This document shows, piece after piece, positions 743 through 55,777 of a stretch of DNA of 64,000 nucleotides. Numbering within the stretch: position 1 is the stretch's first letter; each line of letters begins with the position of its first letter. Made by a program: the position numbers and the translations under genes. The notes beneath the pieces are model-generated. The model was not told the DNA's origin and ran no database searches. It worked only from the letters and a program-made list of their open reading frames with translations. Origin of the DNA: Acidobacteriota bacterium (GTDB lineage: Bacteria; Acidobacteriota; Polarisedimenticolia; Gp22-AA2); the NCBI GenBank assembly GCA_018606725.1, contig JAGYID010000014.1, positions 1,895 to 65,894 of the forward strand, written 5' to 3'.

Positions 743-783
743 ACTGCCTCTGCGGCGAACCTCCGGGGCGTCTGTGTGCCCGC

Positions 784-1917: not shown

Positions 1918-1946
1918 ACGATGGTCCCGACTCCGCGGGGCGTCCC

Positions 1947-4052: not shown

Positions 4053-4218
4053 CCATGTCCTCGTCGGGTTGCGACTTGGCTCCCGATACTGGCGTGGTAT
4101 TTATAACGCCGTGGTCAGAACCGGGCAATTCGGGAGTTTCATGAATCATCGGTCGGGACGCTCCTGACACCCGTCGGGTTGGATCTTCAAGTTAAGATGT
4201 CCCACTACCGAGGACCGC

Positions 4219-5556: not shown

Positions 5557-5575
5557 CCACCTCGGAGGAATAACC

Positions 5576-7177: not shown

Positions 7178-7375
7178 CCACGGCCGCGACGAGTTCCACG
7201 GTATCCCGTCGCAGCGTTCGCCAGGTTCCATCGGGAAAATCCCGACCGGCAGTTCAGGGGGCGCCTCACTGCCCCGCCCCGGATCATCCTCGTATAGTGC
7301 CGGCTCATTGTTGGCTCGATCCGTTCTGAGGATTGGTTCGCCCAGAAGGTCAATGCCCGGCATGAGGAGGGAATC

Positions 7376-7924
7376 ATGAAAGTCATGAATGTGAAGAAGG
7401 TCGTGATGCTCCTGGCAATCCTGACGCTGTTCTCCGCTCCGAGCTGGGCGGGCAGCTTCAGCGCCTTCGGCTCCTACTGGGATACGAACGATGCCGACGG
7501 CAGTTGGGGAGCGGGTGCGCGCGTCGGATTCGACCTGACGAAGAGGATTGAGTTTGAATTCCACGGAACGTACTATCCCGACTTCAAGAACGACGAATTT
7601 CCCGGCCAGACCATCGAGCTCACCGCCATTCCCGTCGACGGCGGCATGAAATTCAATTTCGCGCCCGACAAGACCGTGAATCCCTTCCTGGGCGCAGGGG
7701 TCACCTACTATTTCATGAGCATCAGTCCCGGCAGCGTGGACGACCAGACCGGCGTCTATATCGATGGGGGCCTCGATATCGGAAGCAAGGACGGCACCCG
7801 GTTCTTCGCCGAGGTGATGTGGCGCAAGGTGGATACCTCGATCAGTTTCGGCTCCTTCGACAGTGACGTGAATTTCGATGGGCTCGCTCTGAACATGGGC
7901 GCCACCTGGCGCTGGGGCAAATAG
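7376..7924 (+). CDS. Outer-membrane beta-barrel protein (OmpA-N/OmpW-like porin family).
   Basis: Signal peptide MKVMNVKKVVMLLAILTLFSAPSWA, alternating aromatic/hydrophobic beta-strands, C-terminal ...ATWRWGK with a terminal aromatic residue. Strong GAGGAGGG RBS. Confidence 0.6.
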   Translation: MKVMNVKKVVMLLAILTLFSAPSWAGSFSAFGSYWDTNDADGSWGAGARVGFDLTKRIEFEFHGTYYPDFKNDEFPGQTIELTAIPVDGGMKFNFAPDKTVNPFLGAGVTYYFMSISPGSVDDQTGVYIDGGLDIGSKDGTRFFAEVMWRKVDTSISFGSFDSDVNFDGLALNMGATWRWGK

Positions 7925-8008
7925 GAGCCGGACCTGGACTATACTTTTGCACCCTGATGTCGGTTCCGGGGGCTGAAAGTCGCGGGAACCGCCTGGCGGG
8001 GTGAAGCG

Positions 8009-8305
8009 ATGTCGGAAACCCCGGCAATTCGGTCGAGAATCAAGCAGCTCCTCGTGGATGCGCTCCACCTGGAGGGGCTCGCTCCCTCGAAGATCGCCGA
8101 CGACGCGCCGCTGTTCGGCGAAGGTCTCGGGCTCGATTCCGTGGACGCGCTGGAACTCGTGGTCGCTCTCGAGAAGGAGTTCGGGGTCCGGATCCAGAAC
8201 CACGAGGTCGGCAAAGAGGCGTTCGCCTCGGTCAGCGCCCTGGCGGCCTTCATCGACGGGCGCCTCGCCGCCGCGGGGAGCGCGAATGCCGGCAGCTCAT
8301 CCTGA
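8009..8305 (+). CDS. Acyl carrier protein.
   Basis: LGLDSVDALELV phosphopantetheine-attachment motif (Ser in DSV). Its 3' end overlaps the KS start by 20 nt. Confidence 0.8.
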   Translation: MSETPAIRSRIKQLLVDALHLEGLAPSKIADDAPLFGEGLGLDSVDALELVVALEKEFGVRIQNHEVGKEAFASVSALAAFIDGRLAAAGSANAGSSS

Positions 8306-9554
8306 TCGCGTTGCGTCCCGCGCCGTCGCCGTCACCGGTCTCGGCGCGGTCAGCCCCCTCGGCTGGAGCCTGGAGTCGCTGTGGGACGGCCTGCGGTCCG
8401 GCAGGACCGCCGTCGGTCCGTTCGACCGCTTCGACCACTCCGGCCATCGCACCCACGTCGCAGCCCAGGTCGATCTGGCGGCGGAGCCGGGGCGGCCGCG
8501 CGGCAAACCGCGCCGGATGTCGATCGCCGATCGGTTTGCCGTGGCCGCGGCCCGCGAGGCCGTGGCGCGGTCCGCGATCGATCTCGACGGCTGCGGCGGG
8601 CGCGCCGGCGTCTACTTCGGCAGCAGCACCGGCGGGATGCTCGAGACCGAGACCTACCTCGAGACCCTCCTCGCGGCCGCGGCCGGCCGTGGCAAGTCGC
8701 CCGCGGCGAGCCCCCTCGCCTCGCAGCAGCACAACGGTCCCGGCGATGCGGTGGCCCGCGATCTTCGGATCGGCGGGCCGGTGCAGACCATCTCCGCCGC
8801 GTGCGCGTCGGGCGCCATGGCGATCGGCGACGCCATTCTCGCCATTCGTCGCGGGGAGGTGGAGGTCGCGATCGCCGGAGGCTCCGACTCGCTCTGCCGG
8901 CTGACCTACGCGGGGTTCAACGCGCTGCGCGCGGTGGACGAACGTCCCTGCAGGCCGTTCCGCGGGGACCGCGCCGGCCTGTCGCTCGGCGAGGGCGCGG
9001 CCGCGCTCGTTCTGGAACCCCTCGAGCGGGCCCTGGCGCGCGGCGCGCGGCCGCTCGCCATCGCTGCCGGGGAGGCGGCGACGTGCGATGCGCACCACAT
9101 GACATCGCCCCACCCCGAGGGGCTCGGCGCCGCGGAGGCGATCAAGGGGGCGCTCGCGGACGCGCGGCTCGATCCCTCCGAAATCGACTTCGTCAACGCC
9201 CACGGCACCGGCACGCCGCTGAACGACGCGGCGGAGTGCGAGGCCCTGGTCGCCGTGTTCGGCGACCGGGCGCCGGATCTTCCGGTGACCTCCACCAAGT
9301 CGCTCGTCGGCCACCTGCTGGGTTCGGCCGGGGCGCTGGAGGCCGTGGCGACGATCCTCTGCCTCCTCCATGGGGAGGTCCACCCGATGCCGGACGACGG
9401 GGTGTCCGATCCCGGGATCCGGCTGCGGCTGGTCCTGGGGCGCCCGCTGCGGCTCGCGCGGGCGCGGCACGCGCTCTCCACGAGCCTGGCGTTCGGCGGC
9501 GCCAATGCCGCGCTGGTGTTCACGCGCCACGGAGAACAGCACCCTGCGCGCTGA
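8286..9554 (+). CDS. Beta-ketoacyl-ACP synthase (FabF/KAS II-type, type II PKS KS-alpha-like).
   Basis: VAVTGLGAVSPLG N-terminus, active-site Cys in ISAACASGAMAIG, and His motifs in NAHGTGTPLND and KSLVGHLLGSAG. Confidence 0.85.
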   Translation: MPAAHPDRVASRAVAVTGLGAVSPLGWSLESLWDGLRSGRTAVGPFDRFDHSGHRTHVAAQVDLAAEPGRPRGKPRRMSIADRFAVAAAREAVARSAIDLDGCGGRAGVYFGSSTGGMLETETYLETLLAAAAGRGKSPAASPLASQQHNGPGDAVARDLRIGGPVQTISAACASGAMAIGDAILAIRRGEVEVAIAGGSDSLCRLTYAGFNALRAVDERPCRPFRGDRAGLSLGEGAAALVLEPLERALARGARPLAIAAGEAATCDAHHMTSPHPEGLGAAEAIKGALADARLDPSEIDFVNAHGTGTPLNDAAECEALVAVFGDRAPDLPVTSTKSLVGHLLGSAGALEAVATILCLLHGEVHPMPDDGVSDPGIRLRLVLGRPLRLARARHALSTSLAFGGANAALVFTRHGEQHPAR

Positions 9555-24827: not shown

Positions 24828-26306
24828 ATGAACCCCGGTCGACCACGTGGAGTGCTCCTGATCGAGCCCGACATCAACCCGGTCGCGCGTCGTTTCAGCC
24901 TCCCGAACATCGCCAACTATCCTCCGATCTCCCTCACCTTCACTTCGAACGGCGACGAAGCCATCGGCGTGGCGGCGGCGATCCGAAGCATTTCCCCAAC
25001 GACCACCATCGTCTTCGGAGGGACCGCCCCTTCGGAGGATCCCGCCTCGTTCTGGGACTCGGCGGCGGATCTGATCTGCTGCCGAAACGGCGACGCGGCA
25101 TTCGCGGCGCTGGCCGCCGAAGTTCGCGAAACGGGACGGGCCCCGGCGCGCTTCCCCGGCTTTTTCCACCGCGACGACGGGCGCTGGGTCCTCGACCCGG
25201 GGCCGCCCGCGGCGCCCCTGGCGAGCCTTCGACCTTACGCCTGGCACCTGCTCCCCAATCGTTACTGGCGCGAGTACTTCCAGGGGTTCCGGCCCACCGG
25301 GATGAGCCAGACGAGCGAGGGGTGCCCCTACGACTGCACCTTCTGCACCGTCTGGAAGACGCACGGGCGTAAGGTTTCATTGGCATCCCTTGCGAACGTC
25401 CAGCACGACTTCAATTCTCTGCCCGCCTCCATCCGAGGCTTCTTCTTCGCCGACGACATCTGGATGCAGGCCAGCGAGCGGCAGATCCAGGAGCTCTACG
25501 ACCCGCTCCTGGAATGGATGGCCTCGGACTTTCTCCCGCGCCGTGGCGATTTCTGGCTGACGGTCGAGACCCGGACGGACCTTTACCTGCGCGAGGAGGA
25601 TCGGTTCAAGGCCTGGATCCGGCGCGGAGGGCTGAAGAGAATCCTCTTCGGCGTCGAGGCGGTGACCGACGAGCAACTCAAGAACTTCAGCAAGCGCAAC
25701 ACGGTCGATAACAACATCGAGGCGATCCGTCGCGCCGCGGAGACCGGTGCCATCGTGACGGCCCAGTTCGTCATCCCGTGCGACGCCACGCTCGCCTACT
25801 TCGACGAGATGGTCCGGTTCCTGAAGACCCATCGGCGCTGGATCAGGACCTCGAACTTCACCGTCGCGACCCCGCTGCCGGGCACCGACCTCTACACGGA
25901 ATCCCTGAAAGTGTCCCCGGAGCTGGCCGACAGGAAGGCGGTTTCGCACCCGGCCTTCTCCCTCTTCACCGCGCTGACGCCGACCCGCCTCGACGTCCGC
26001 GAGTTCTACGAGCAGGTGGCGCGAGTATTCCGCGCCGCCAACCAGATCCACTTCAGTGTTGACGCTCAGCGTCAGGTCTTCCGGATGGCGGTTCAATCTC
26101 CCTGGCTGATCCGGCGCCTCGTGAAGGCCCCGCTGGCCCTGCGCGCCCTGACCGATCCTCGCACCTTCCTCGATGTGCACCGCCAGGTCCAGGGTGACCG
26201 TCTCCTCGGACCGCGGCCGGTGACGTCGTACCGCCCCCTGCCGTCGTCGGACATCGCGACGAGCGCTACTCGAGCAGGCATGGCGCCGTCGAGCGCGCAG
26301 AGATAG
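24828..26306 (+). CDS. B12-binding-domain radical SAM protein (class B rSAM).
   Basis: N-terminal Rossmann-like B12-binding region, then CPYDCTFC (CxxxCxxC) radical SAM cluster motif. Confidence 0.75.
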   Translation: MNPGRPRGVLLIEPDINPVARRFSLPNIANYPPISLTFTSNGDEAIGVAAAIRSISPTTTIVFGGTAPSEDPASFWDSAADLICCRNGDAAFAALAAEVRETGRAPARFPGFFHRDDGRWVLDPGPPAAPLASLRPYAWHLLPNRYWREYFQGFRPTGMSQTSEGCPYDCTFCTVWKTHGRKVSLASLANVQHDFNSLPASIRGFFFADDIWMQASERQIQELYDPLLEWMASDFLPRRGDFWLTVETRTDLYLREEDRFKAWIRRGGLKRILFGVEAVTDEQLKNFSKRNTVDNNIEAIRRAAETGAIVTAQFVIPCDATLAYFDEMVRFLKTHRRWIRTSNFTVATPLPGTDLYTESLKVSPELADRKAVSHPAFSLFTALTPTRLDVREFYEQVARVFRAANQIHFSVDAQRQVFRMAVQSPWLIRRLVKAPLALRALTDPRTFLDVHRQVQGDRLLGPRPVTSYRPLPSSDIATSATRAGMAPSSAQR

Positions 26307-27168: not shown

Positions 27169-28989
27169 TCATCGGGCGGGGGGATGAGCGGCTTCCTTCG
27201 CGCCCGAGGCCGGCCCCCCTGAAACCCGGGATGCCACGCGATCGAGCGCGGTTCGTTGCGGCCCGTCGAACTCGTACACGTCCGGAGCGAAGCGCAATGC
27301 GCCGGCGTCGTCGACCCAGGCCGTCAAATAGAGGATGTGAATCGGCACCGGCGGCTTGACGGACAGGTGGCGCTCCTTCGGCTGGTCCAGGGCCTCGCGG
27401 AGGAGGTCCTGCGACGATTCGCCCAGGAGCCGCGCCGCCAGATCGAGCGGTCTCTCCACCCGGATGCAGCCATGGCTGAGATCCCGGTCCGATTGGCCGA
27501 ACAGACCACGCGTGGGCGTGTCGTGCAGATAGATGCGGAACTCGTTGGTGAGCTGGAACTTCAGGCGTCCGAGCGCGTTGTTCGGCCCGGGGTCCTGGCG
27601 CAGGCGATAAGGGAAGCGTCCCCCCTCCAGCGCGCGCCAGTCCACGGTCGCAGGGTCCACTTCGCGAGGGTCCTCCTCCGGACCCTCGAGCAGGCGAAGG
27701 CCGCGTCGCGCGAACGCCCTCGGGTCGTCCCGCATCTCGGGCAGGTATTCTCCGAGGGCGATGCTCTTCGGGACGTTCCACGGCGGGTTGACCACGACGG
27801 CCACGATCCGATCGCTGAACACCGGCGTGGGCGAGAAGGCCTTCCCGACGACGATACGCGTGCGCCACACGGAGGCTCCGCCGCGCACCAGCTTGAGGTC
27901 GAACGCCGGGATGTTGACGAACACATGCAGAGCGCCGAGCCGGCGCGGGATCCACCGCCAGCGCTCGAGGTTCAGCTCGACTTGCTGGCTCCACCAGTCG
28001 ACGGGCACATTCAGCTCGTCCAAGGTGCGCCCGCCCACCTTCCCGTCCGGCTCGATCGCGTGCCGCTCCTGGAAGCGGCGGACCGATTCGGCCAGCGCCT
28101 CGTCGAATTGATCGCCGGCGCCCGCCGTCGCGCTGTTGGCGGACTCCACCGTCCCGGCGGATTCAGCGAGGCGCTTCCGTAGGATCAATACCCTCGGTCC
28201 GCGTGAACCCGGTCCGAGCTCGGGGCCATCGGGGATCGCCGGCCACCCGCCCGCCGCCTCGACCTGGCGCAATCCTCTCAACGCCTCGCGCAGGCGCGCA
28301 TAGCCCGCGTGTGGCGGCGGCAGGGCTTCGAGAAGCTCCGCAAGAGTACCGTCCTTGCGGGCCTGGTCCAGCTTCGTCAGCGGGTCGAGCTCGGGGGGAT
28401 TCGTGTGCCAGTCGTTCCGGATCTCATCGGGGTGCACGCGGCCGGTCGACAGGTCGGCCGCGTACCGGAAGAAGGCGGCGGTCATGAGCAGATCGAAATC
28501 GGCCAGACGCGCGACCGCGGCGTCATCGAACGGGGGCTTGCCGATCTGCGTCCCCAGGAGATCGAGCCGGCTCAGAGCGTAGTCTTCCGGGTCCAATCCG
28601 TGTTCGCCCGCCCGTCGCAGCGCGTCGAGAAGAGTCTTCGTCGAAGGGAGGAGCCCGCCGGAGTCGTCGCACCACGCCAGCCGTTGCCCGTTATTGGCGT
28701 AGAACTCCCTCAGGGTGTCGCGCGTCGGGAAGACCGGGTTGGACCGGTTTACCCCGCCCTCCGCCGGCACGGGGGCCGACCTCAGCTGCCGTGCCAGCGC
28801 CTGCTGTACCTCGTCGCGCGACAGGTCCGGCCGTCCGCCGTCTCCAAAGGACTTCAGCCGCGCCTCGAGACGCCCGGGGATCGTGTCGCGCGGACCGCAG
28901 GCCGCGACCAGGACGACCAAGAGTACGGGCCATGCGCGCCCGAGGACGCTTCGCATCGCGACCCCTTCGCGGAAGCGGGTGAGGAGCAT
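27169..28989 (-). CDS. YcbB/LdtD-like L,D-transpeptidase with a peptidoglycan-binding domain.
   Basis: Lipoprotein-like N-terminus (LVAAC), PG-binding-like middle region, YkuD domain with SHGCIRV catalytic motif. Confidence 0.75.
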   Translation of the reverse strand: MLLTRFREGVAMRSVLGRAWPVLLVVLVAACGPRDTIPGRLEARLKSFGDGGRPDLSRDEVQQALARQLRSAPVPAEGGVNRSNPVFPTRDTLREFYANNGQRLAWCDDSGGLLPSTKTLLDALRRAGEHGLDPEDYALSRLDLLGTQIGKPPFDDAAVARLADFDLLMTAAFFRYAADLSTGRVHPDEIRNDWHTNPPELDPLTKLDQARKDGTLAELLEALPPPHAGYARLREALRGLRQVEAAGGWPAIPDGPELGPGSRGPRVLILRKRLAESAGTVESANSATAGAGDQFDEALAESVRRFQERHAIEPDGKVGGRTLDELNVPVDWWSQQVELNLERWRWIPRRLGALHVFVNIPAFDLKLVRGGASVWRTRIVVGKAFSPTPVFSDRIVAVVVNPPWNVPKSIALGEYLPEMRDDPRAFARRGLRLLEGPEEDPREVDPATVDWRALEGGRFPYRLRQDPGPNNALGRLKFQLTNEFRIYLHDTPTRGLFGQSDRDLSHGCIRVERPLDLAARLLGESSQDLLREALDQPKERHLSVKPPVPIHILYLTAWVDDAGALRFAPDVYEFDGPQRTALDRVASRVSGGPASGAKEAAHPPAR

Positions 28990-29704: not shown

Positions 29705-30652
29705 CTACCTGGCGAGCTCGAACGACAGGGAGGAGACCCAGCCCTTTGCGCCCAGCTCGTCGGTGACCTCCCAGAGTACGTCGCGCTTTTCGCCGGTCGG
29801 ATAGAGCATGGTGCCGGGCTCGAGCGGTTTCACGACCTGGCCGTTGGTGTCCGGGGTCGCGTACATGCGGCCGGGCCTGTTCATGGTGACAGCCTGCTGG
29901 GCGTTGTCGGCGGAGGCGTTCTCCGGCAGGGCGCCCAGCTGATCCACCAGGTCGGTGTAGGCCTGGAGATACGCCAGGGTGATGACCTGACCGATCTCGG
30001 TATTGGAGTAGCCGGTGGCGCCGGCGCCGCCGAAATCGTTGGTGGAAAAGACGGTGCCGTGCAAGCCCAACCCGAGATCGGTCTTCTTGGCATGGCCTTC
30101 GACCGCGGCCACCTGTTCCGAGGAGCGCACGTCGGTGACGGTCAGCACCACGTCCGCCGTCTTCTTCTTCACGTTGATGCCGCCAGCCACGACCCCCGCG
30201 GTGTGGCTATGGAGCAGGCCGCCGACCAGGCCCCCGACGCCTCCGCCGCCGGCCCTGTTGTTGGAGGAGATCAGATCGGGCACCAGCACATAGTCCGCCG
30301 CCTTGATCTGCCCACGGCCGATGTTCGAGCCGCCGCGCAGATCGCCGCTGGCCGCGAGGGCCCTCTCGGACTGCGCGGCCTGCATCCCCTTGCCGCGATC
30401 GACCAGGGTGAAGCAGTTCGACTTGCGCACGAAGACCTTGATCAGCGCTTCAGGCGACCCGAGGCCCTGCTCGCGCCACCAGTCGGATTCCGGTTCCACG
30501 ACGCTCATGGAGCCGAGCCGCTTCTGGCACACCGGAATCTGGGCGGATTTCTCGTCGCGTATGGCCTGGACCGACTTGGCGAACGCCGGTATCGCCGCCA
30601 CGCCGACCAGGGCCGCCACGACCGAAGTCGCCATCAGTCTCTTCAATGTCAT
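29705..30652 (-). CDS. CsgG/HfaB-family outer-membrane lipoprotein (curli-type secretion channel family).
   Basis: Signal peptide and Cys (IPVCQ), with CsgG-like core (FTLVDRG..., YVLVPDLIS...). Confidence 0.6.
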   Translation of the reverse strand: MTLKRLMATSVVAALVGVAAIPAFAKSVQAIRDEKSAQIPVCQKRLGSMSVVEPESDWWREQGLGSPEALIKVFVRKSNCFTLVDRGKGMQAAQSERALAASGDLRGGSNIGRGQIKAADYVLVPDLISSNNRAGGGGVGGLVGGLLHSHTAGVVAGGINVKKKTADVVLTVTDVRSSEQVAAVEGHAKKTDLGLGLHGTVFSTNDFGGAGATGYSNTEIGQVITLAYLQAYTDLVDQLGALPENASADNAQQAVTMNRPGRMYATPDTNGQVVKPLEPGTMLYPTGEKRDVLWEVTDELGAKGWVSSLSFELAR

Positions 30653-31233: not shown

Positions 31234-31749
31234 ATGCGTCGACTGTCCCTGATTCTCGCGGCCGCCACCCTCGCCACCTGTCCCCTGCGCCCGATCGCCG
31301 CGGGCTCCACCGCCGATCGCTGCGCCGGGGCGCCTCACCGGCAGTTCGACTTCTGGCTGGGGGCGTGGGACGTCCGCACGCCGGACGGGAAGACCGCCGG
31401 CACCAACCGGATCGAGAAGGTCTCCGGCGGGTGCGCCCTGATCGAGAACTGGAGCGGCGCGAGCGGCAGCCGCGGCACGTCGCTCAACTTCTACGACGAG
31501 GCGTCGGGATTGTGGAACCAGGTGTGGGTGGACAATGAAGGGGAGATCCTGCGGCTGAGCGGGACCCTCGATGCGGGCAGCATGGTCCTCGAGGGAGCCG
31601 CCGCCGGCGACCGGACCACGCGGCACCGCATCACCTGGAGACCTCTCCAAGGCGGCCGGGTTCGCCAGCATTGGGAGTCATCGCCCGACGGCGGCAAGAC
31701 CTGGTCGACGCTGTTCGACGGCACCTACACGCGGCGCGGCAGTCCCTGA
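31234..31749 (+). CDS. Hypothetical secreted protein (DUF1579/lipocalin-like beta-barrel size).
   Basis: Signal peptide MRRLSLILAAATLATCPL, then a W-rich soluble domain (FDFWLGAWDVRTPDG...). No confident family assignment. Confidence 0.4.
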   Translation: MRRLSLILAAATLATCPLRPIAAGSTADRCAGAPHRQFDFWLGAWDVRTPDGKTAGTNRIEKVSGGCALIENWSGASGSRGTSLNFYDEASGLWNQVWVDNEGEILRLSGTLDAGSMVLEGAAAGDRTTRHRITWRPLQGGRVRQHWESSPDGGKTWSTLFDGTYTRRGSP

Positions 31750-31821
31750 TCAGAAAGGCCGCACCGGTTTCGATCGGGCCGCTCGCCGGCTGCCTCACCC
31801 TCGTGGCCGGGAGCGGAACCT

Positions 31822-32082
31822 TCAGCGGCAGCGGCCGCTGTCGCAGGTCCCGTTGGCGAGAGTGCAGCCGAAGGCGCCGGTGACGTGACCGCAGCGCGTC
31901 GGGCTGATGCATCCCTTGTTCGGGCACTGCGGGCCGGCGATGGCGGCGACGCCGGCCAGGTCGGCGAGCGCGGAGACGTACGGGCCCGGGTGACCGCCCG
32001 CCGGGACGACGACAGCCGGTATCATCGCGAGCACAACGACGAAGGCGAGAGCGGCGACGGCTCGACCGGCGAATCTGCGCAT
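31822..32082 (-). CDS. Secreted 6-Cys peptide, paralogue 1 of 3 (86-aa precursor).
   Basis: GGAGGA RBS. Sec signal peptide, conserved PYVSALADLA segment, C-terminal CPNKGC...C...C...C...C (6 Cys). Confidence 0.6.
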   Translation of the reverse strand: MRRFAGRAVAALAFVVVLAMIPAVVVPAGGHPGPYVSALADLAGVAAIAGPQCPNKGCISPTRCGHVTGAFGCTLANGTCDSGRCR

Positions 32083-32262
32083 GCTGTCCTCCTCGATGAA
32101 GAGCGCGACGTCTGCCGCGCTTCGACTCGCGCATCATACTCCCGGCGTCGGTGTTCGCGCGCGATCGTCCTTGACTCCATCCCGCGGGCGGATGTAGTTT
32201 CGCGACCACCACGATGCAGGAGCCCGGCGACGCCCGCCGGCCACCCTCACAAGGAGCATGCG

Positions 32263-32532
32263 ATGCCTTCGATGAAGAAACTCGTCCTGCCGCTGCTGAC
32301 CATGGCGACGATCGTGATGCTGGCGTCGGCCCTGTCCGGCCCTTCGGCCGGGACTGACAGTCCGTATCTTTCCGCCTTGTCGGATTTGGCGGCCTCGCCG
32401 GTCCTGGCCGCCGGCGGTTGCGGCAACCGCGCCTGCGACTTCACGCAGTTCCGGACCTGCTACACCAACTCCGGGACCCGCTGCGACAGGAACGTGCGCA
32501 CCGCGGCGGGGTGCGCGACCATCCCCTGCTGA
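32263..32532 (+). CDS. Secreted 6-Cys peptide, paralogue 2 of 3 (89-aa precursor).
   Basis: AAGGAG RBS. Signal peptide, SPYLSALSDLA segment, C-terminal CGNRAC...C...C...C...C. Divergent from paralogue 1. Confidence 0.6.
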   Translation: MPSMKKLVLPLLTMATIVMLASALSGPSAGTDSPYLSALSDLAASPVLAAGGCGNRACDFTQFRTCYTNSGTRCDRNVRTAAGCATIPC

Positions 32533-32619
32533 AGGGCCCCCCGGGGGCCACGCGGCTCGACCGGCTGCGGCGACCTGTAGTAAGATCGCGTCTCAATTAC
32601 AAATCGCAGGAGGTGCACC

Positions 32620-33279
32620 ATGGCACTGCGTATTGGAGACGAGGCCCCCGAGTTCACGGCCCAAACCACCCAGGGAACCATCAACTTCCACCAGTGGATC
32701 GGCGACGGATACGCCATCCTGTTCTCGCATCCGAAGGACTTCACGCCGGTCTGCACGACCGAGCTCGGTTACATGGCCGGCCTGAAGCCGGAGTTCGACA
32801 AGCGCAACTGCAAGATCATCGGGCTGAGCATCGACTCGGTCGAGGACCACACGCGCTGGTCCCGGGACATCGAGGAGAGCCAGGGGCACGCCGTCAACTA
32901 TCCGATGATCGGCGACTCGGATCTCAAGGTCGCCAAGCTCTACGACATGATCCACCCGAACGCCACCGGCGAGGCCAAGGGACGCACCGCCCAGGACAAC
33001 GCCACCATCCGCTCGGTGTTCATCGTCGGCCCCGACAAGAAGATCAAGGCGACGCTGACCTATCCGATGAGCACCGGCCGGAACTTCGACGAGGTCCTGC
33101 GTCTGCTCGACTCGATTCAGCTGACCGCCAAACACAAGGTCGCCACCCCGGTCAACTGGAAGCAGGGGCAGGACGTGATCATCGTGCCCGCGGTCAGCGA
33201 CGAAGAAGCCCGGCAAAAGTTCCCGGGCGGATGGAAGGCGCCGAAGCCGTACATCCGCACGGTGCCGCAGCCGAGGTAG
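32620..33279 (+). CDS. 1-Cys peroxiredoxin (Prx6 subfamily).
   Basis: FTPVCTTE peroxidatic-Cys motif and Prx6-type C-terminal extension. Confidence 0.85.
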   Translation: MALRIGDEAPEFTAQTTQGTINFHQWIGDGYAILFSHPKDFTPVCTTELGYMAGLKPEFDKRNCKIIGLSIDSVEDHTRWSRDIEESQGHAVNYPMIGDSDLKVAKLYDMIHPNATGEAKGRTAQDNATIRSVFIVGPDKKIKATLTYPMSTGRNFDEVLRLLDSIQLTAKHKVATPVNWKQGQDVIIVPAVSDEEARQKFPGGWKAPKPYIRTVPQPR

Positions 33280-49054: not shown

Positions 49055-50107
49055 TCAGGCCGTGGCCCCGCCGCAGGAGGAGCCGGAGCCGGCGGTGCAG
49101 CCGTAGCAGTGGTTACCGGTGACGACGCGCCGGGCGTGCAGGACCGACGGGTCGAAGTCGCGGATGTGGGCCGGCGCGCCGTGGGCGAGGGTCAGGTCGA
49201 GCATCTGGTTGAAGTCGCAGTCGTACAGCCGCCCGTCCCATCCGACGGAGAGGGTATACCGGCACATTACCCCGGCGGCAGCCACCGGGTTGAAGGCGTT
49301 TACCAGCCGCTCCATGTACCCCTCGTAATTGCCGGAGCGGATCAGGAACTCGAGGAAGCGGCTGATCGGCATGTTGGTGATGGTGTACAGGTTGTTGAAG
49401 ACGATGCCGTGCTCGTGGGCCAGCCGCTGCCGGAAGTGCGCCTCCTGCGACGGCTGCGCCGGGGGCAGGAACGCGCCGACGGGATTGGTGACCAGGTTCA
49501 GGACGAGGCCGCTGCCGTCGCAGCCGTAGCCGAGACCGTTCAGAACCCGCAGAGCCTGGAGCGACTTATCGAAAACGCCGGCGCCGCGCTGGGCGTCGGT
49601 CTGCGACGGGACGACCGACGGGAGCGAGGCGACAATCTCGACGCGGTGCCGCGCCAGGAAGCCGCCGAGATCCCCCTGCGACGGCAGCAGCAGGACGCTC
49701 AGGTTGCAGCGGTCCATGACCCGCCGGCCGAGCCGCCGTGACTCCTCGACCAGGTAACGGAAGGCGGGGTTCAGCTCCGGCGCGCCGCCGGTGATGTCGA
49801 CCGCCGGGATGTCGGTGCGCGCCAGCGCCGCCATGCACGCCTCGGCCGTGGCCTGGGTCATGACCTCGGCGCGATCGGGCCCGGCGTCGACGTGGCAGTG
49901 GCCGCAGGTCTGGTTGCACAGCTTGCCGACGTTGATCTGGAACACCGTGATGCCGGTGGCCCGCAGCGGCGCGAGCCGGGCGCCGGCCAGCATCGCGTCG
50001 AAGCGCGGTTGGCCGTTGGGCGACTCCAGTAGGCGCACCTGCTCGCCCGGCGCGGCCAATGCGCTGCCGCGCGCCTTGAGGCTCCGGGTCGGAGGAGGCA
50101 CCGGCAT
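49055..50107 (-). CDS. arsS: Arsenosugar-biosynthesis radical SAM protein ArsS.
   Basis: CNQTCGHCH radical-SAM cluster motif and C-terminal Cys-rich tail (HCYGCTAGSGSSCGG), characteristic of the ArsS family. Confidence 0.75.
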   Translation of the reverse strand: MPVPPPTRSLKARGSALAAPGEQVRLLESPNGQPRFDAMLAGARLAPLRATGITVFQINVGKLCNQTCGHCHVDAGPDRAEVMTQATAEACMAALARTDIPAVDITGGAPELNPAFRYLVEESRRLGRRVMDRCNLSVLLLPSQGDLGGFLARHRVEIVASLPSVVPSQTDAQRGAGVFDKSLQALRVLNGLGYGCDGSGLVLNLVTNPVGAFLPPAQPSQEAHFRQRLAHEHGIVFNNLYTITNMPISRFLEFLIRSGNYEGYMERLVNAFNPVAAAGVMCRYTLSVGWDGRLYDCDFNQMLDLTLAHGAPAHIRDFDPSVLHARRVVTGNHCYGCTAGSGSSCGGATA

Positions 50108-50111
50108 CTCC

Positions 50112-50444
50112 CTACATCGAGATTTTGGTGGCGACGTTCCGCATCTGCACGCCGTGCACGAGCGACGCACCTCCCCGGATGGCGCAGGTGACGTGCACCG
50201 CTTCGGTCATCTCCTCGACGCTGGACCCCTTCTCCAGGCAGGCCTGCGTGTAGGCGTCGATGCAGTACGGACACTGGACCGCGTGCGCCACCGCCAGCGC
50301 GATCAGCGCCTTCTCCCGCTCGGTCAGCGCCCCCTCGGCGAACACGGCGCCGTAGTAGGCCATGAACTTCTCCCACAACGCCGGGTTCCCCTTCCCCATG
50401 TCGGCGAAATGACCGAGATCCTTCGGGTGGTAATAGGTCTCCAT
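50112..50444 (-). CDS. Carboxymuconolactone-decarboxylase (CMD/AhpD)-family, arsenosugar-associated peroxidase-like protein.
   Basis: 110 aa with the CMD core AVAHAVQCPYCIDAYT. Sits 4 nt upstream of arsS on the same strand. Confidence 0.7.
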   Translation of the reverse strand: METYYHPKDLGHFADMGKGNPALWEKFMAYYGAVFAEGALTEREKALIALAVAHAVQCPYCIDAYTQACLEKGSSVEEMTEAVHVTCAIRGGASLVHGVQMRNVATKISM

Positions 50445-51677: not shown

Positions 51678-53045
51678 ATGCCGATTTTCAGGGGACTTAA
51701 GACTGGCACTCGGGTGCGGGAACGGATGACCCGCGGAGCGGCGATCTTCGCCGCGGTTCTCTTCGCCGCGGGCCCGGCCGTGGCAGTTGCTGACGAAACG
51801 TGCATGTCGCCCTACATGGCCAAGATCACCTCGCAGGAGGACTTCGTCTACGTCTGGACCCTCGGCACGAAGGGGGTCGGCGACGAGTCCGACAAGCTGG
51901 TGACCATCGATGCGCGCCCCGGGTCGAAGACCTACGGCAAGGTGGTGAACACGCTGTCGGTCGGCGGGCGCAACGAGGCGCATCACGCCGGCTTCACCGA
52001 CGATCGGCGCTACCTCTGGGCCAGCGGTCTCGACACCAGCAAAATCTTCGTATTCGACGTCGCCACCGATCCGGCCCGGCCGCGGCTGCACAAGACGATC
52101 GCCGACTTCGTCGCCAAGACGGGCGGGGTCGTCGGGCCGCACTCCCTGTACGCCCTCCCCGGGCGCATGCTGATGACCGGCCTGTCGAACGACAAGGACC
52201 ATGGCGGCCGCACCGCGCTCGTGGAGTACGGCAATCAGGGCGCCTACATCGCCACCCACTGGATGCCGACGGCCGCCGATCCGCGCGGCGCCGCCATCGA
52301 GAAGGTCGCCGACGGCTACGGCTACGACGCGCGCGTCCTGCCGCGCCGCAACGTCATGCTGACCTCGTCGTTCACCGGCTGGTCGAACTACATGATGGAC
52401 TTCGGCAAGATGTTGCAGGACCCCGAGGCGATGAAGCGCTTCGGCCAGACGGTCGTGGTCTGGGACCTGCACGCCCGCAAGCCGCTGAAGGTCCTCGACG
52501 TGCCGGGATCGCCGCTCGAGATTCGCTTCGCCTGGGGGGCGAGGCACAACTACGCCTTCACCAGCAGCGCCCTCACCTCCAAACTGTGGCTCATCCACGA
52601 AGACAGCCCGAACGTCTGGAAGGCGCAGGCGGTCGCCGACATCGCCGACCCGTCGAAGGTCCCGCTGCCGGTCGACATCAGCCTGAGCGCCGACGACAAA
52701 AGCCTGTGGGTCGACACCTTCATGGACGGCATGGCGCGGTTGTTCGACGTCAGCGACCCGTTCCATCCGAAGCAGGTGTACGAGAAGAAGATCGGCGCGC
52801 AGCTCAACATGGTGTCGCAGAGCTGGGACGGGGCGCGCGTCTACTTCACCTCCTCGCTGCTGGCGAACTGGGACAAGAAGGGTCAGGACGACGAGCAGTT
52901 CCTGAAGGCCTACGCCTGGGACGGCAAGGAGCTGACCGAGAAGTTCGCCGTCGACTTCTACGCCGAGAAGCTCGGCCGCCCGCACATCATGCACTTCGGC
53001 GCCTACAGCCTGTACGGCAAGACCGGCATCGCGGCGGGCAAGTAG
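51678..53045 (+). CDS. Selenium-binding protein (SBP56 family; methanethiol-oxidase-like), exported.
   Basis: Signal peptide, then SBP56 homology over the whole length (HHAGFTDDRRYLWASGL..., C-terminal HFGAYSLYGK). Confidence 0.8.
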   Translation: MPIFRGLKTGTRVRERMTRGAAIFAAVLFAAGPAVAVADETCMSPYMAKITSQEDFVYVWTLGTKGVGDESDKLVTIDARPGSKTYGKVVNTLSVGGRNEAHHAGFTDDRRYLWASGLDTSKIFVFDVATDPARPRLHKTIADFVAKTGGVVGPHSLYALPGRMLMTGLSNDKDHGGRTALVEYGNQGAYIATHWMPTAADPRGAAIEKVADGYGYDARVLPRRNVMLTSSFTGWSNYMMDFGKMLQDPEAMKRFGQTVVVWDLHARKPLKVLDVPGSPLEIRFAWGARHNYAFTSSALTSKLWLIHEDSPNVWKAQAVADIADPSKVPLPVDISLSADDKSLWVDTFMDGMARLFDVSDPFHPKQVYEKKIGAQLNMVSQSWDGARVYFTSSLLANWDKKGQDDEQFLKAYAWDGKELTEKFAVDFYAEKLGRPHIMHFGAYSLYGKTGIAAGK

Positions 53046-53231: not shown

Positions 53232-54905
53232 GTGCCGCCGGCGCCGGGGAGCTATGCGCTGCCACCGATCCAGCCGGCGGCAGACGGCGCGGTGATCGAC
53301 GCCGACGGAACGCCGCGCCGGCTGTTCGACTACCTCGGCGATCGCGACATCCTGCTCAGCTTCGTGTACACGCGCTGCACCGACACCGAAGGCTGCCCGC
53401 TCGCGACCGGCGTCCTGGAGATGGTCCGCGAGGGGCTCGCGAAGGATCCGGAGCTGGCGGCGATGGTGCGTCTGGTGACCCTGAGCTTCGACCCGGAGCG
53501 CGACAGCCCGGGCGCCATGCGCCGCTATGCCCTGCACGCCGGCGGCATCGACCCCGGCACCCGCTGGAACGAGCGGCCGTGGGTCTTTCTCACCACCGCG
53601 TCCAGGGCCCGGCTGCAGCCGATCCTCGACGGCTACGGGCAGTCGGTGGTGCGAGAGCTCGACGCCGCCGGCCGGCCGACCGGTGATTTCACCCACGTGC
53701 TCAAGGTCTTCCTCATCGATCGCCGGAAGCGGGTGCGCAACATCTACAGCACCAGCTTCCTGCACCCGGCGATCGCCCTCAACGACCTCAAGACCCTGGC
53801 GCTGGAGGAGGTCGACCCGCGGGCGCTCGGGCGCGTCCGGCATCCGCCGCGCGGCCTGCCGCCGGTGCCGCTGCCGGCGGACGACCCACCGACGATCCCG
53901 AAGCTCCGCCTCGGGCGGAAGCTGTTCCTCGACCGGCGCCTGTCGCGCAACGGCACCCTGTCCTGCGCCATGTGCCACGTGCCGGAGCAGGGCTTCGCCG
54001 TCAACGAGACCCGCACGGCCGTGGGCTTCGAGGGCCGGACGCTGCGCCGCAACGCCCCGACCCTGCTCAACGTGGCGTACGCCGCGCCGTTTTTCCACGA
54101 CGGCCGCGAGCCGGCGCTGGAGATGCAGCCGTTCGACGTGTTTCTCAATCCCGATGAGATGGCGGCGCCGTCGCTGGGCGCCCTGGTGGAGACGGTCCGG
54201 TCATTGCCGGACTACGCGCCGCTGTTCGAGGCGGCCTTCCGCGCCCAGCCGGGCGTCGAGGCCATCGGCCGGTCGATCGCCGCCTACCTGCGCACCCTGC
54301 TGTCGGCGAACTCGCCGTTCGATCGCTGGCGCTTCGGCAAGGACGGGGCGGCGCTGGGCGCCGCGGCGCAGCGCGGCTTCGCGCTGTTCACCGGCCGGGG
54401 CCGCTGCGCGTCGTGCCACCGCATCGGCGACGATGCAGCCCTGTTCACCGATCACCAGTTTCACGACACCGGAGTGGCGTGGTTCGCCGCCGAGACCCGG
54501 CGGACGGAGACCGGGCCGGTGACCGTGCAGCTCGCCCCGGGCGTGACGGCGCCGCTGTCGCGCGCGGCGGTCGACAGCGTCGGCGGGCCGGCGGCGAACG
54601 ACCTGGGTCGTTACGAGGCGACCGGCGATCCGGCCGATCGGTTCCGCATCAAGACGCCGACGCTGCGGAATGTCGCGCTCACCGCGCCGTACATGCACGA
54701 CGGGTCGCTGTCGACGCTGCGGGAGGTGGTGGAGTTCTACGACCGCGGAGCGCGCCCGCACGAGGGCCTCGATCCGATCCTGAAGCCGCTCGACCTTCGG
54801 GAGGGCGAGGTCGACGATTTGGTGACGTTCCTGGAGAGCCTCACCGGCGACAACATCGACGAGCTGGTCCGCGACGCGCGCAGCGAGGCGGTGGGAAATC
54901 CGTGA
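53232..54905 (+). CDS. SCO1/SenC-like thioredoxin-fold domain fused to a di-haem cytochrome c peroxidase (CCP/MauG family).
   Basis: SCO-like FVYTRCTDTEGCP motif, then two haem-binding sites CAMCH and CASCH and the CCP C-terminal PTLRNVALTAPYMHDGS. The true start may lie upstream, near 53046, giving a lipoprotein-type signal (LSLALAC) from a non-ATG codon. Confidence 0.75.
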   Translation: MPPAPGSYALPPIQPAADGAVIDADGTPRRLFDYLGDRDILLSFVYTRCTDTEGCPLATGVLEMVREGLAKDPELAAMVRLVTLSFDPERDSPGAMRRYALHAGGIDPGTRWNERPWVFLTTASRARLQPILDGYGQSVVRELDAAGRPTGDFTHVLKVFLIDRRKRVRNIYSTSFLHPAIALNDLKTLALEEVDPRALGRVRHPPRGLPPVPLPADDPPTIPKLRLGRKLFLDRRLSRNGTLSCAMCHVPEQGFAVNETRTAVGFEGRTLRRNAPTLLNVAYAAPFFHDGREPALEMQPFDVFLNPDEMAAPSLGALVETVRSLPDYAPLFEAAFRAQPGVEAIGRSIAAYLRTLLSANSPFDRWRFGKDGAALGAAAQRGFALFTGRGRCASCHRIGDDAALFTDHQFHDTGVAWFAAETRRTETGPVTVQLAPGVTAPLSRAAVDSVGGPAANDLGRYEATGDPADRFRIKTPTLRNVALTAPYMHDGSLSTLREVVEFYDRGARPHEGLDPILKPLDLREGEVDDLVTFLESLTGDNIDELVRDARSEAVGNP

Positions 54906-54944: not shown

Positions 54945-55499
54945 TCACTCCTTCGGCAGCGCGTCCGTCCTTGGCTCGAAGTCCGGCACCGTGCCGAGCC
55001 CTGCCGACACCAGGTTGGCGAACCGGGCCAGTCCGATGACCAGGATCGCCTCGAGAATCTGCTCGTCGGTGAAGCCATAGGTCCGCAGCCCCTCGACGTC
55101 GTCGCGGCTGGCCTTGGTCGCTTGGCGGTTCAGCTTCAGCGCGAAATTCAAGAGCGCTTTGTCGGCCACCGGCAGGTCGGTGTGCGCGTGGTCGACGGCG
55201 ATCTGCTCCGGCTTCGGCCCCTTCAGCCCCAGCATCTTGACGATCTCGCAGTGCGCCGTGACGCAGTATGTGCTGAGATTGGCGGCCGAGCAGACCAGGA
55301 AGATGTATTCCTTCTGCGCCCGCGACAGGGCGCCCTCCTGGATCAGGATGCTCCAGACCAGGCGCGTCTCCGCCTCGATCAGGTCGGGTCGCATCGTCTG
55401 GGCCCGGTAGAAGTTGGGGATGAACCCGAACTGCCGCCGCGCCTCCGCGAACGGCAGGAACTCGTTCTCGTCGAGCGGCACCTGGCGCAGGAAACTCAT
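54945..55499 (-). CDS. CMD/AhpD-family (carboxymuconolactone decarboxylase-like) redox protein.
   Basis: CMD core with YCVTAHCEIV (Cys/His motif). Sits 6 nt downstream of 6-Cys peptide paralogue 3. Confidence 0.7.
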   Translation of the reverse strand: MSFLRQVPLDENEFLPFAEARRQFGFIPNFYRAQTMRPDLIEAETRLVWSILIQEGALSRAQKEYIFLVCSAANLSTYCVTAHCEIVKMLGLKGPKPEQIAVDHAHTDLPVADKALLNFALKLNRQATKASRDDVEGLRTYGFTDEQILEAILVIGLARFANLVSAGLGTVPDFEPRTDALPKE

Positions 55500-55504
55500 C
55501 GGCG

Positions 55505-55777
55505 CTAGACGCAGGAGCCGGTCGAGCAGCTGCTCCCGTTGTACTTGTAGCAGTAGTACCCGACGAGCTTGCCGCAGTTGCTGTGACGGTGCCCGCCCGA
55601 CACGCATCCCTTGTCGTTGCACTGGACCTGCGCCTGGACGTCCGGCACCGCCAGCCCTGACAGCGCCGATAGATACGGCGACCCGCCCTGCCGCTCCCCG
55701 CCCAGGAACGCCGGCAGCGCCGCCAGCACGGCCAGCACCAGCAATCCGCGCAACGCAATCCTCACGGTTCTGCTCAT
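55505..55777 (-). CDS. Secreted 6-Cys peptide, paralogue 3 of 3 (90-aa precursor).
   Basis: GAGGAGG RBS. Signal peptide, SPYLSALSGLA segment, C-terminal CNDKGC...C...C...C...C. Confidence 0.6.
   Translation of the reverse strand: MSRTVRIALRGLLVLAVLAALPAFLGGERQGGSPYLSALSGLAVPDVQAQVQCNDKGCVSGGHRHSNCGKLVGYYCYKYNGSSCSTGSCV

Follow-up and report, generated by a model that had tools for sequence, protein, structure and literature searches.

Putatively exported six-cysteine peptide precursors form an unannotated, multi-copy family in uncultivated soil and sediment bacteria

Introduction

Mini-proteins rich in disulfides, among them defensins, knottins, conotoxins and STa, are prized because they make stable scaffolds and can be used to probe receptors and membranes; to our knowledge, few families of them are known from bacteria. 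A high cysteine content also marks the SCIFF precursors, which hold six cysteines in forty-five residues, lack an export signal and always lie beside a radical-SAM maturase. STa is produced as a 72-aa pre-pro-peptide consisting of a 19-aa signal, a 34-aa pro part and a C-terminal peptide that carries three DsbA-made disulfides and ends at or beside its last Cys (PMC6356903). The bacterial cis-defensins, including xanthusin-1, the actifensins/actinomycesin and AdDLP, fall into five classes (PMC11561630).

In the present study, we analyzed a 64,000-nucleotide stretch of an Acidobacteriota contig (hereafter, the window) and found three intact genes, A, B and C, that are members of a large unannotated family, best explained as lineage-restricted and multi-copy, with precursors of ~88 residues. 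Like the 72-aa STa precursor, these are small proteins of diderm bacteria in which, as far as can be read from the sequence, a Sec signal is followed by a pro-region and a C-terminal six-cysteine peptide, with no dedicated maturase beside the gene; 106/169 members end on their last Cys. In contrast, there is no sequence similarity to STa (no Pfam match in 146 members), and the STa core comprises 18-19 residues with CC pairs, whereas that of the family spans ~33-45 residues with a C-x4-C unit at either end and a predicted beta fold. Furthermore, a pro-region of fixed length with an invariant P-Y-x-S-x-L is a feature of the family and not of STa, and STa is encoded on a virulence plasmid, whereas the family occurs in multiple copies in uncultivated soil and sediment bacteria. 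The ST family itself (Enterotoxin_ST, core CCxxCCxxxCxxC) was rejected, since A, B, C and 146 relatives gave no Pfam match to it and CC occurs in 1/168 members.

Results and Discussion

Three intact genes in the window

The initial annotation described A and B as two small genes on opposite strands that encode 86-aa and 89-aa precursors, each with a strong RBS, and both the ORFs and the RBS sequences bear this out (Table 1): GAGGAGG stands 6 nt before the start codon of A (complement at 32089-32095), AAGGAG at 32251-32256 lies 6 nt before that of B, and GAGGAGG is found 7 nt upstream of C. The divergent spacer attributed to the pair exists, at one base pair less than the 181 bp originally given. 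A promoter scan of the spacer found no sigma-70 consensus promoter, an Rfam search of the whole window, spacer included, gave no match, and the repeats in the spacer are short and weak only. The 11-residue motifs of A and B, described as nearly identical, agree at 8/11 residues, the six-Cys framework proposed for both is there, and the third paralogue announced at a distance of 23 kb is C, with six cysteines spaced x4/x9/x7/x7/x4. The family HMM, applied to a six-frame translation of the window, recovered exactly three copies with E-values from 1e-28 to 1e-37, i.e., A (94.7 bits, E 3.7e-28), B (97.6 bits, E 4.4e-29) and C (123.7 bits), and the matches of a degenerate DNA pattern for the motif were precisely A and B, with 0/100 shuffles matching.

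Table 1. Positions of the family genes, their parts and associated features in the window
Feature	Position	Strand	Description
Paralogue A	31822..32082	minus	86-aa precursor, stop codon within coordinates; ORF and family HMM
Paralogue B	32263..32532	plus	89-aa precursor, stop codon within coordinates; ORF and family HMM
Paralogue C	55505..55777	minus	90-aa precursor, motif SPYLSALSGLA, cysteine domain CNDKGCVSGGHRHSNCGKLVGYYCYKYNGSSCSTGSCV
Conserved segment of A, GPYVSALADLA	31954..31986	minus	residues 33-43; family logo
Conserved segment of B, SPYLSALSDLA	32359..32391	plus	residues 33-43
Six-cysteine domain of A (C53-R86)	31825..31926	minus	C-x4-C-x5-C-x7-C-x6-C-x4-C
Six-cysteine domain of B (C53-C89)	32419..32529	plus	C-x4-C-x7-C-x7-C-x8-C-x4-C
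A/B divergent intergenic spacer	32083..32262		180 bp; carries RBSs of both A and B
CMD/AhpD-like 184-aa gene	54945..55499	minus	directly downstream of C

In A, residues 1-10 form the basic N-region, residues 11-26 the hydrophobic core and P34-Y35 the invariant Pro-Tyr, and A-I-A, where cleavage may occur, stands before the cysteine domain; upstream of the cysteine domain of B lies V-L-A, then A-G-G. The sequences are consistent with the shared architecture first proposed, that of paralogous, exported-looking six-cysteine precursors in which a conserved segment precedes a variable cysteine-rich tail. We identified orthologues of A (P0008, P0009, P0011, P0021 and P0022) and of B (P0012, P0013, P0015 and P0017, at 57-74% identity). 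The divergent pairing of A and B was not kept elsewhere, the B orthologue at locus L007 and the A-like copy at L006 both standing without a partner.

Family size and selection

In a set of 1.84 billion representative proteins clustered at 50% identity, the family profile matched 356 clusters at E<=1e-3, a number that falls to 159 at E<=1e-10. The matches are full length (80-98 aa) with few exceptions and show that the motif is conserved far beyond the three copies first noticed. No shared family emerged from Pfam and NCBIfam searches with A, B, C and 146 relatives, where the best stray hit, of one member to 'fulvocin C-related' (E 0.006), is at chance level for 146 queries, and PDB profile searches gave non-significant matches only (a beta-defensin 1 variant, E 0.078; a Notch3 chain, E 0.38), in keeping with the earlier statement that the peptides could not be assigned to a described bacterial family. 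Likewise, a six-cysteine P-Y-x-S-x-L family is not described in the literature that we retrieved with the motif string or under bacterial cysteine-rich peptide families, and a genome-contig scan restricted to B-specific patterns yielded a single spurious 12-residue match in Synechococcus. For the analysis of loci, the window was combined with loci from protein look-up and 99 loci from a soil/sediment metagenome scan, giving 134 family copies in 105 loci; tandem arrays are common among them and reach as many as 6-7 copies at one locus.

Selection was estimated as dN/dS from gap-free, identity-binned orthologue pairs, saturated pairs being left out. For pairs of at least 80% identity, dN/dS was 0.42 in the signal, 0.13 in the motif and 0.18 in the cysteine domain; for the cysteine domains of the window copies against their orthologues it was 0.14-0.23, i.e., 0.21-0.23 for B against its L007 and L004 orthologues (0.26-0.35 overall) and 0.14 for C against its L003 orthologue. 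The tail that had been called hypervariable deserves the word only when paralogue groups are compared; among orthologues its constraint matches that of the motif. We conclude that the genes are real and that purifying selection acts on them. The contrary reading, that they are chance ORFs or decaying pseudo-genes, was rejected and has a vanishingly small probability: long spurious ORFs do abound in high-G+C DNA (the window has 69% G+C overall), and damage is seen in a few relatives (no N-terminus in L006, loss of C1-C2 in L062 and a frameshift in L025), but the RBSs are strong, third-codon-position G+C reaches 0.86 in A and 0.91 in C, the HMM E-values are extremely low, the 356 clusters share one length and dN/dS is well below 1. 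As for disabled frames in close relatives, which the initial annotation named as a sign of decay, the orthologues are under purifying selection, and the apparently decaying A-like copy at L006 is an exception.

Precursor architecture and predicted structure

The members are built on a remarkably uniform plan. Position 10 is Arg or Lys in 159/159 aligned members, with Arg10 nearly invariant; a 15-residue uncharged hydrophobic core follows, then a Pro at about residue 27 (87/159 members), and the stretch directly past the core has many small residues interspersed with Pro. The median net charge is +4 in the N-flank against 0 past the core, which fits the positive-inside rule, and the basic N-region, the core within ~10-18 residues and the helix breaker are those by which a Sec-type signal is predicted. 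Pro-Tyr occupies residues 34-35 in 130/169 members, and the distance between the N-terminus and the motif varies by no more than one or two residues. Exactly six cysteines follow the motif in 164/169 members (8 in three, 5 in two), with C1-x4-C2 in 156/164 and C5-x4-C6 in 151/164. Residues obeying the (-3,-1) signal-peptidase rule are found at motif positions +13/+15, 2-5 residues before Cys1, in 133/168 members, this conserved A-x-A being ~25 residues downstream of the hydrophobic core. The predicted mature parts have a mean net charge of +2 (138/163 positive), and the loop sequences are conserved in a way particular to each paralogue group. AlphaFold2 predicts a helix at residues 5-24, disorder in the motif region (pLDDT ~55) and, in the cysteine domain of B, four beta strands without any helix (pLDDT 79-86); fold searches with this model gave no match to known folds.

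We propose that A, B and C are Sec-exported pre-pro-peptides of a multi-copy family, a reading of the sequences to which we assign a probability of about one half and under which export, cleavage, disulfide formation and release would proceed as follows. The basic N-region with Arg10 and the 15-residue core would carry the chain across the inner membrane in an N-in/C-out orientation, and the P-Y-x-S-x-L(S-D-L) segment, together with the A-x-A 13-15 residues past the Pro, would serve as pro-region and processing signal. A cut at A-x-A would free a C-terminal peptide of ~33-45 residues in the family and ~37-41 in A, B and C, usually cationic, whose six cysteines would form three disulfides in the periplasm and so brace a small domain of four beta strands. 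The standard systems for export, cleavage and disulfide formation (Sec, signal peptidase and Dsb) would suffice, with no need for a dedicated maturase or exporter. Judged by their sequences, the genes most likely yield exported disulfide-bonded peptides. The loops conserved separately in each paralogue group suggest that each group probably binds a different target, and for the role of the peptides we would rank first an extracytoplasmic ligand, either an antagonistic peptide or a signal; the assignment of the family to toxins, signals or bacteriocins, as first put forward, is a guess.

The position of the A-x-A speaks against such pre-pro-peptides, as it lies far beyond a normal signal-peptide c-region, in which the cut falls 3-7 residues past the core; signal peptidase I may therefore not cut there, and the chain may stay anchored or keep the motif in its mature form. 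This leads to an alternative that we consider unlikely, although it deserves serious attention, namely periplasmic accessory mini-proteins that retain the motif, with an uncleaved anchor or a cut near A-P-S, just past the core, and a mature part of 55-60 residues. P-Y-x-S-A-L-S-D-L would then be a docking element for a conserved partner, and the cysteine knob would provide specificity for a neighboring periplasmic or outer-membrane protein. Two observations favor this view: constraint on the precursor is strongest in the motif, and the fixed distance of the motif from the N-terminus is easier to understand for a docking element than for a spacer that is thrown away. On the other hand, the predicted disorder of the motif region argues against docking, an A-x-A before Cys1 in so many members would be hard to account for without cleavage, and tandem arrays of divergent copies look more like peptide repertoires than like dedicated chaperones.

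Gene neighborhoods

The neighbors vary by orthologue group, many of them being periplasmic redox or outer-membrane proteins. C and its orthologue, on two different contigs, share synteny with SBP56 (methanethiol-oxidase-like), an SCO1/SenC-MauG fusion and CMD, the CMD/AhpD-like downstream neighbor being kept for the C subgroup only; other groups lie near a DUF5777 beta-barrel, a cytochrome c554 protein, a di-haem oxidoreductase or FadL. ORFs containing CxxCH occur within 4 kb in 23/105 loci. Such surroundings, in which every orthologue group retains a synteny of its own with genes for periplasmic or outer-membrane proteins, favor the accessory mini-proteins and would also fit a housekeeping accessory role, but there is no one partner gene common to all groups.

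The SBP56/SCO1 context of C, seen twice, might also point to periplasmic metal-handling peptides, in which the cysteines and the His-rich loop of the C subgroup (GGHRHSNC, conserved there) would bind copper or another thiophilic metal instead of forming three disulfides, and the nearly invariant paired C-x4-C units at both ends would agree with such a site. We regard this as improbable: the context is confined to one subgroup, disulfides are what one would expect of an exported protein whose cysteines are even in number (6, occasionally 8), His makes up 3% overall and is missing from the loops of most members, and no similarity to any Pfam or PDB metal-binding family was found.

Six cysteines within ~35-40 residues might also belong to RiPP precursors, whose conserved N-terminus would be a leader and whose cysteines would be cross-linked by a maturase (e.g., radical-SAM), as in SCIFF, ranthipeptides and sactipeptides. 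As in SCIFF and ranthipeptides, the peptides are short, ribosomally made and carry six cysteines toward their C-terminus; P0017 is followed after 57 bp by a 379-aa radical-SAM gene, and the window holds four radical-SAM genes. However, none of the four adjoins A, B or C, the nearest being 3.5-5.5 kb off with unrelated genes between, and a radical-SAM-like (CxxxCxxC) ORF lies within 4 kb in just 4/105 loci and within 1 kb in 1. Moreover, the N-terminus is an export signal by its charge and hydrophobicity, unlike RiPP leaders. SCIFF, ranthipeptide and sactipeptide precursors were accordingly rejected, there being no adjacent maturase as a rule, an export-type N-terminus and no member that fits an NCBIfam RiPP precursor model, and we hold the RiPP reading in general to be very improbable.

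The rarity of radical-SAM-like ORFs, together with the lack of any ORF with an ABC signature (LSGGQ/Walker-A) or ABC/peptidase exporter within 4 kb (0/105 loci), speaks against both RiPPs and double-glycine bacteriocins. Double-glycine bacteriocins and microcins are likewise small ribosomal peptides, sometimes disulfide-bonded and often multi-copy, but the leader of the family is a hydrophobic, Sec-type signal; this class was rejected, with GG before Cys1 in 8/168 members and no C39-ABC exporter in the same 105 loci. B itself reads A-A-G-G right before Cys1. As regards an antagonistic role for the exported peptides, there is no immunity gene or exporter nearby, and the strong purifying selection within orthologue groups is likewise unlike the arms race typical of bacteriocins.

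Relation to cysteine-rich peptide repertoires

The cis-defensins offer a further comparison, as small secreted three-disulfide peptides of bacteria, many from soil, in which a signal peptide precedes a cysteine-rich core and which in some cases have N-terminal tails; the disulfides of the family would be analogous. Nevertheless, the conserved P-Y-x-S-x-L pro-segment has no counterpart in defensins, and their defining cysteine-stabilised alpha-beta motif, a CxxxC on the helix paired with a CxC on a strand, is absent from the family. A cis-defensin assignment was rejected on the grounds of these counts (CxC in 0/168 members, CxxxC in 10/168, both in 0), the beta-only model and the lack of a PDB sequence or fold match.

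The conotoxin superfamilies, legume NCR peptides and knottins resemble the family in their conserved signal or pro part, fixed cysteine framework and divergent loops, and eukaryotic cysteine-rich repertoires also comprise many paralogues in tandem arrays. Unlike these, the family genes are bacterial and without detectable homology to them, and their loops are under purifying, not diversifying, selection within orthologue groups. In a knottin, or inhibitor cystine knot, the disulfides pair I-IV, II-V and III-VI and the third bond passes through the ring; in the family all six cysteines are invariant, and the fold searches gave no match. Tentatively, and at somewhat less than even odds, we would go further and see in the pre-pro-peptides a conotoxin-like repertoire of uncultivated soil and sediment bacteria, with dozens of paralogue lineages of three-disulfide mini-proteins of a previously unseen fold behind one conserved signal-plus-pro cassette, whose P-Y-x-S-x-L...A-x-A would be read by a further processing or export step; this would make them a new superfamily of secreted peptide ligands (toxins or signals).

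A family of at least 356 clusters that has no annotation, a rigid precursor design and no match to a known fold represents a natural library of ~33-45-residue scaffolds, and it raises a testable question, that of the reader of the invariant pro-segment. It also opens a way to study how soil lineages that have so far escaped cultivation interact through peptides; should its members be periplasmic accessories instead, they would constitute a new class of small envelope proteins. The taxon labels of the relatives include Acidobacteriota, 'Deltaproteobacteria', 'Betaproteobacteria' and Ca. Dormibacteraeota.

Three coding frames and a large family

The initial annotation described two small divergent genes with strong ribosome-binding sites (RBS), and both open reading frames and both sites were present in the sequence and ORF listing (genes A and B, Table), with cysteine spacings that agree with the framework it gave (A, x4/x5/x7/x6/x4; B, x4/x7/x7/x8/x4); its third paralogue, gene C, was recovered by a six-frame motif scan. 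The shared intergenic region also exists, although the sequence from 31500 to 32900 and the ORF listing put it at 180 bp rather than 181, and a promoter scan of this spacer revealed no consensus sigma-70 promoter; neither an Rfam match nor a notable repeat was found there. Third-codon-position G+C is 0.86 in A and 0.91 in C, values that mark genuine coding frames where, as in this window, overall G+C is 69%. When all window ORFs of 30 aa or more were searched with all filters off, the family HMM matched A, B and C alone (E 1e-28 to 1e-37; next best E 0.03), and a degenerate DNA pattern for the shared P-Y-x-S-x-L motif matched A and B but none of 100 shuffles.

Table. Coordinates of family genes and their neighbours
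Feature	Location	Position	Strand	Remarks
Gene A	window	31822-32082	minus	86 aa; RBS GAGGAGG 6 nt before start codon
Gene B	window	32263-32532	plus	89 aa; RBS AAGGAG 6 nt before start codon
Gene C	window	55505-55777	minus	90 aa; RBS GAGGAGG 7 nt upstream
Radical-SAM gene	window	24828-26306	plus	
Radical-SAM gene	window	49055-50170	minus	
Radical-SAM gene	window	59265-61226	minus	
Radical-SAM gene	window	61419-63128	plus	
L,D-transpeptidase gene	window	27169-28989	minus	YkuD + PG_binding_1; upstream of A/B pair
CsgG-like lipoprotein gene	window	29705-30652	minus	upstream of A/B pair
SBP56, methanethiol-oxidase-like	window	51699-53045	plus	faces C
SCO1/SenC-MauG fusion	window	53232-54905	plus	beside SBP56; faces C
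CMD/AhpD-like gene	window	54945-55499	minus	directly after C
SBP56/SCO1-MauG/CMD set	L003	191-4645		around C-like orthologue
Radical-SAM gene	L004	504-1643		379 aa; starts 57 bp past B orthologue P0017
Divergent family-gene array	L104	5465-14502		6-7 genes in 10-15 kb
Divergent family-gene array	L117 + L118 (GCA_035635555.1, DASQAT010000003.1)	1-9360		6-7 genes in 10-15 kb; Transposase_mut gene interrupts
XRE-HTH gene + 'CEFVAPAFTC' member	L108	1530-2759		further examples: L017, L033, L059
A-like copy	L006	9845-10138		damaged

About 26 relatives came out of a word-seeded search through 5.8 billion proteins; apart from singletons, they form orthologue groups of A-like, B-like and C-like members. 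An HMM search, a step proposed at the outset, found the motif kept far beyond three copies: run exhaustively with HMMER against 1.84 billion 50%-identity representatives, it gave 356 clusters with E<=1e-3, 159 of them with E<=1e-10, nearly all of 80-98 aa and matching end to end. One family member is labelled Ca. Dormibacteraeota; relatives of a neighbouring gene at 78-80% identity carry labels of Ca. Polarisedimenticolaceae (Acidobacteriota) and 'Deltaproteobacteria' MAGs, and a peroxiredoxin relative that of a 'Betaproteobacteria' MAG.

The precursors share one architecture. After Met1, a basic N-region runs to a near-invariant Arg10 (153 Arg and 6 Lys among 159), usually followed by Phe, and then come a 15-residue hydrophobic core, a Pro near residue 27 and a segment enriched in Pro and small residues. 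The motif, [S/T/G]-P-Y-[L/V]-S-A-L-S-D-L, has an invariant P and nearly invariant Y, S and L, with Pro-Tyr at residues 34-35 in 130/169 members; four variable residues later stands [A/V]-x-A, satisfying the signal-peptidase (-3,-1) rule in 133/168, with Cys1 two to five residues beyond. Exactly six cysteines lie downstream of the motif in 164/169 members, C1-x4-C2 and C5-x4-C6 being kept in 156 and 151 of the 164 and the three middle loops varying (x4-10, x7-8, x5-9). In 106/169 members the chain ends with the last Cys, in 49/169 one further residue follows it, and the part from Cys1 to the end comprises 30-43 residues, rich in Gly, Thr, Asn and Ser, with a mean net charge of +2.

Predicted fold and relation to known peptides

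The AlphaFold2 model of B (146 family sequences, mean pLDDT 72) contains a helix at residues 5-24, an unstructured, low-confidence motif region (pLDDT ~55) and a four-stranded beta domain at residues 53-89 (pLDDT 82-86); a model of the mature domain by itself reproduced the four strands (pLDDT 79). These models had no fold match, a weak negative for some 40 residues, and no Pfam or NCBIfam family matched among 146 members; the peptides are thus claimed by no described family, and the modelled fold is possibly new. Our literature search, too, found no description of motif or family. Judged by sequence, the earlier view of secreted-type six-cysteine paralogues outside described families holds, and they represent a new family, marked by a conserved putative pro-cassette that is also new, among Sec-dependent disulfide-rich peptide precursors.

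The more specific suggestions made at first fared less well. Bacterial cis-defensins are documented, with a required CxxxC/CxC pair and helix (PMC11561630); this combination is missing here, against a cis-defensin. The proposed 'knottin/defensin-like' character and the 'toxin/bacteriocin' proposal found no support. Among 552 neighbouring ORFs within 4 kb at 105 loci, no locus carried the ABC-transporter signature, against a double-glycine bacteriocin. A RiPP precursor is disfavoured by the absence of NCBIfam matches (146 members) and by the rarity of CxxxCxxC ORFs, present within 4 kb at 4/105 loci and within 1 kb at one only, the radical-SAM gene by P0017. Four radical-SAM genes occur in the window, three with a B12-binding domain and one with DUF3641; none adjoins A, B or C.

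Selection and damaged copies

The family genes are under selection. Pooled over 64 gap-free orthologue pairs of at least 80% identity (96 distinct gene sequences), dN/dS was 0.42 in the signal, usually the freest part of a precursor and the freest here as well, 0.13 in the motif segment and 0.18 in the cysteine domain; in the latter, window B and C gave 0.14-0.23 against their orthologues. The tail called 'hypervariable' is therefore so between paralogue lineages only, each lineage keeping its own loops. Disabling mutations in close relatives, named at first as evidence of decay, were confined to a few copies: one in L062 has lost the C1-C2 stretch, one in L025 is frameshifted, and the A-like copy in L006, with dN/dS ~0.7 against window A, retains its cysteine domain but no start codon or hydrophobic N-terminus, and is probably decaying or possibly an assembly error. 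Losses of this kind are normal as a multi-copy family turns over, and they do not speak against function.

Arrays, neighbours and a proposed mode of action

Scanning JGI metagenome contigs with a degenerate motif yielded 107 loci, 99 with true members; together with the window and loci fetched by protein look-up, these 99 make 105 loci with 134 copies (locus G+C 60-74%). At least two copies occur in 17 of the fetched loci, usually as divergent paralogues arrayed in tandem on one strand. Six copies lie within 14.8 kb of one contig, and that contig's counterpart in GCA_035635555.1 holds 6-7, interrupted by a transposase gene; the paralogue-group order of these arrays recurs in L012, L024, L041 and L067. 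A second divergent pair of A/B type was found in L105.

Relying on sequence features, established rules and the closest working precedent in a diderm, we consider it about an even chance (0.5) that A, B and C are pre-pro-peptides using general machinery only. That precedent, E. coli STa, is made as a 72-aa pre-pro-peptide, in which a 19-aa signal and a 34-aa pro part precede a C-terminal peptide bearing three DsbA-made disulfides (PMC6356903); the family is alike in working terms but not a member, none of the 146 members matching the ST family in Pfam. It likewise resembles conotoxins and NCR peptides, cysteine-rich repertoires of eukaryotes, in evolutionary pattern but not in membership. By the positive-inside rule, the basic N-flank and neutral C-flank around the hydrophobic core would place the C-terminus outside, where the Dsb system would make the disulfides, as the even, invariant cysteine count of the putatively exported domain suggests. 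The P-Y-x-S-x-L...A-x-A cassette would then serve as pro and processing signal, and cleavage at the conserved small-x-small site right before the folded cysteine domain would free it, its paralogue-specific loops providing the binding surface. Since A-x-A lies about 25 residues beyond the core, further than a canonical signal peptide would allow, this reading has to assume either that another protease acts or that signal peptidase is offered the site in an unusual way.

Clustering of all neighbouring ORFs at family loci revealed no universal partner gene; synteny is kept by each orthologue group separately. In one group the family gene comes after a gene for a DUF5777 beta-barrel, in another after that for a 940-aa cytochrome c554 protein, and downstream of B stand genes for a 1-Cys peroxiredoxin and a cysteine synthase-rhodanese fusion. 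At 24 loci an XRE-type HTH gene precedes each 'CEFVAPAFTC' group member on its own strand, at a distance of 87 bp (85-90 bp), and an outer-membrane channel, a chalcone-isomerase-like gene and FadL come after the member; the HTH gene may be a dedicated regulator of this subgroup. Its product has about 335 aa and a C-terminal domain of no known type. These neighbours, varied yet persistently envelope- or redox-related, fit the main rival, a tentative and less probable reading than the pre-pro-peptide one, in which the motif is retained after maturation for docking and the peptides are periplasmic accessories. As a raw count, ORFs with the c-type haem motif CxxCH lie within 4 kb at 23/105 loci; they include a di-haem oxidoreductase, a cytochrome c554 protein and a protein of the DUF5777 type whose N-terminus carries CxxCH. 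The CsgG-like and L,D-transpeptidase genes upstream of the A/B pair serve the envelope, as is typical when the host is a diderm.

The C subgroup

The SBP56, SCO1-MauG and CMD genes around C recur in L003, from another metagenome. For this subgroup metal handling is conceivable but improbable; its copper-related neighbours and the common His-rich loop GGHRHSNC speak in its favour, and a copper or sulfur link may exist for the C subgroup only. The L003 neighbourhood additionally contains an inserted zf-HC2 (anti-sigma-like) gene.
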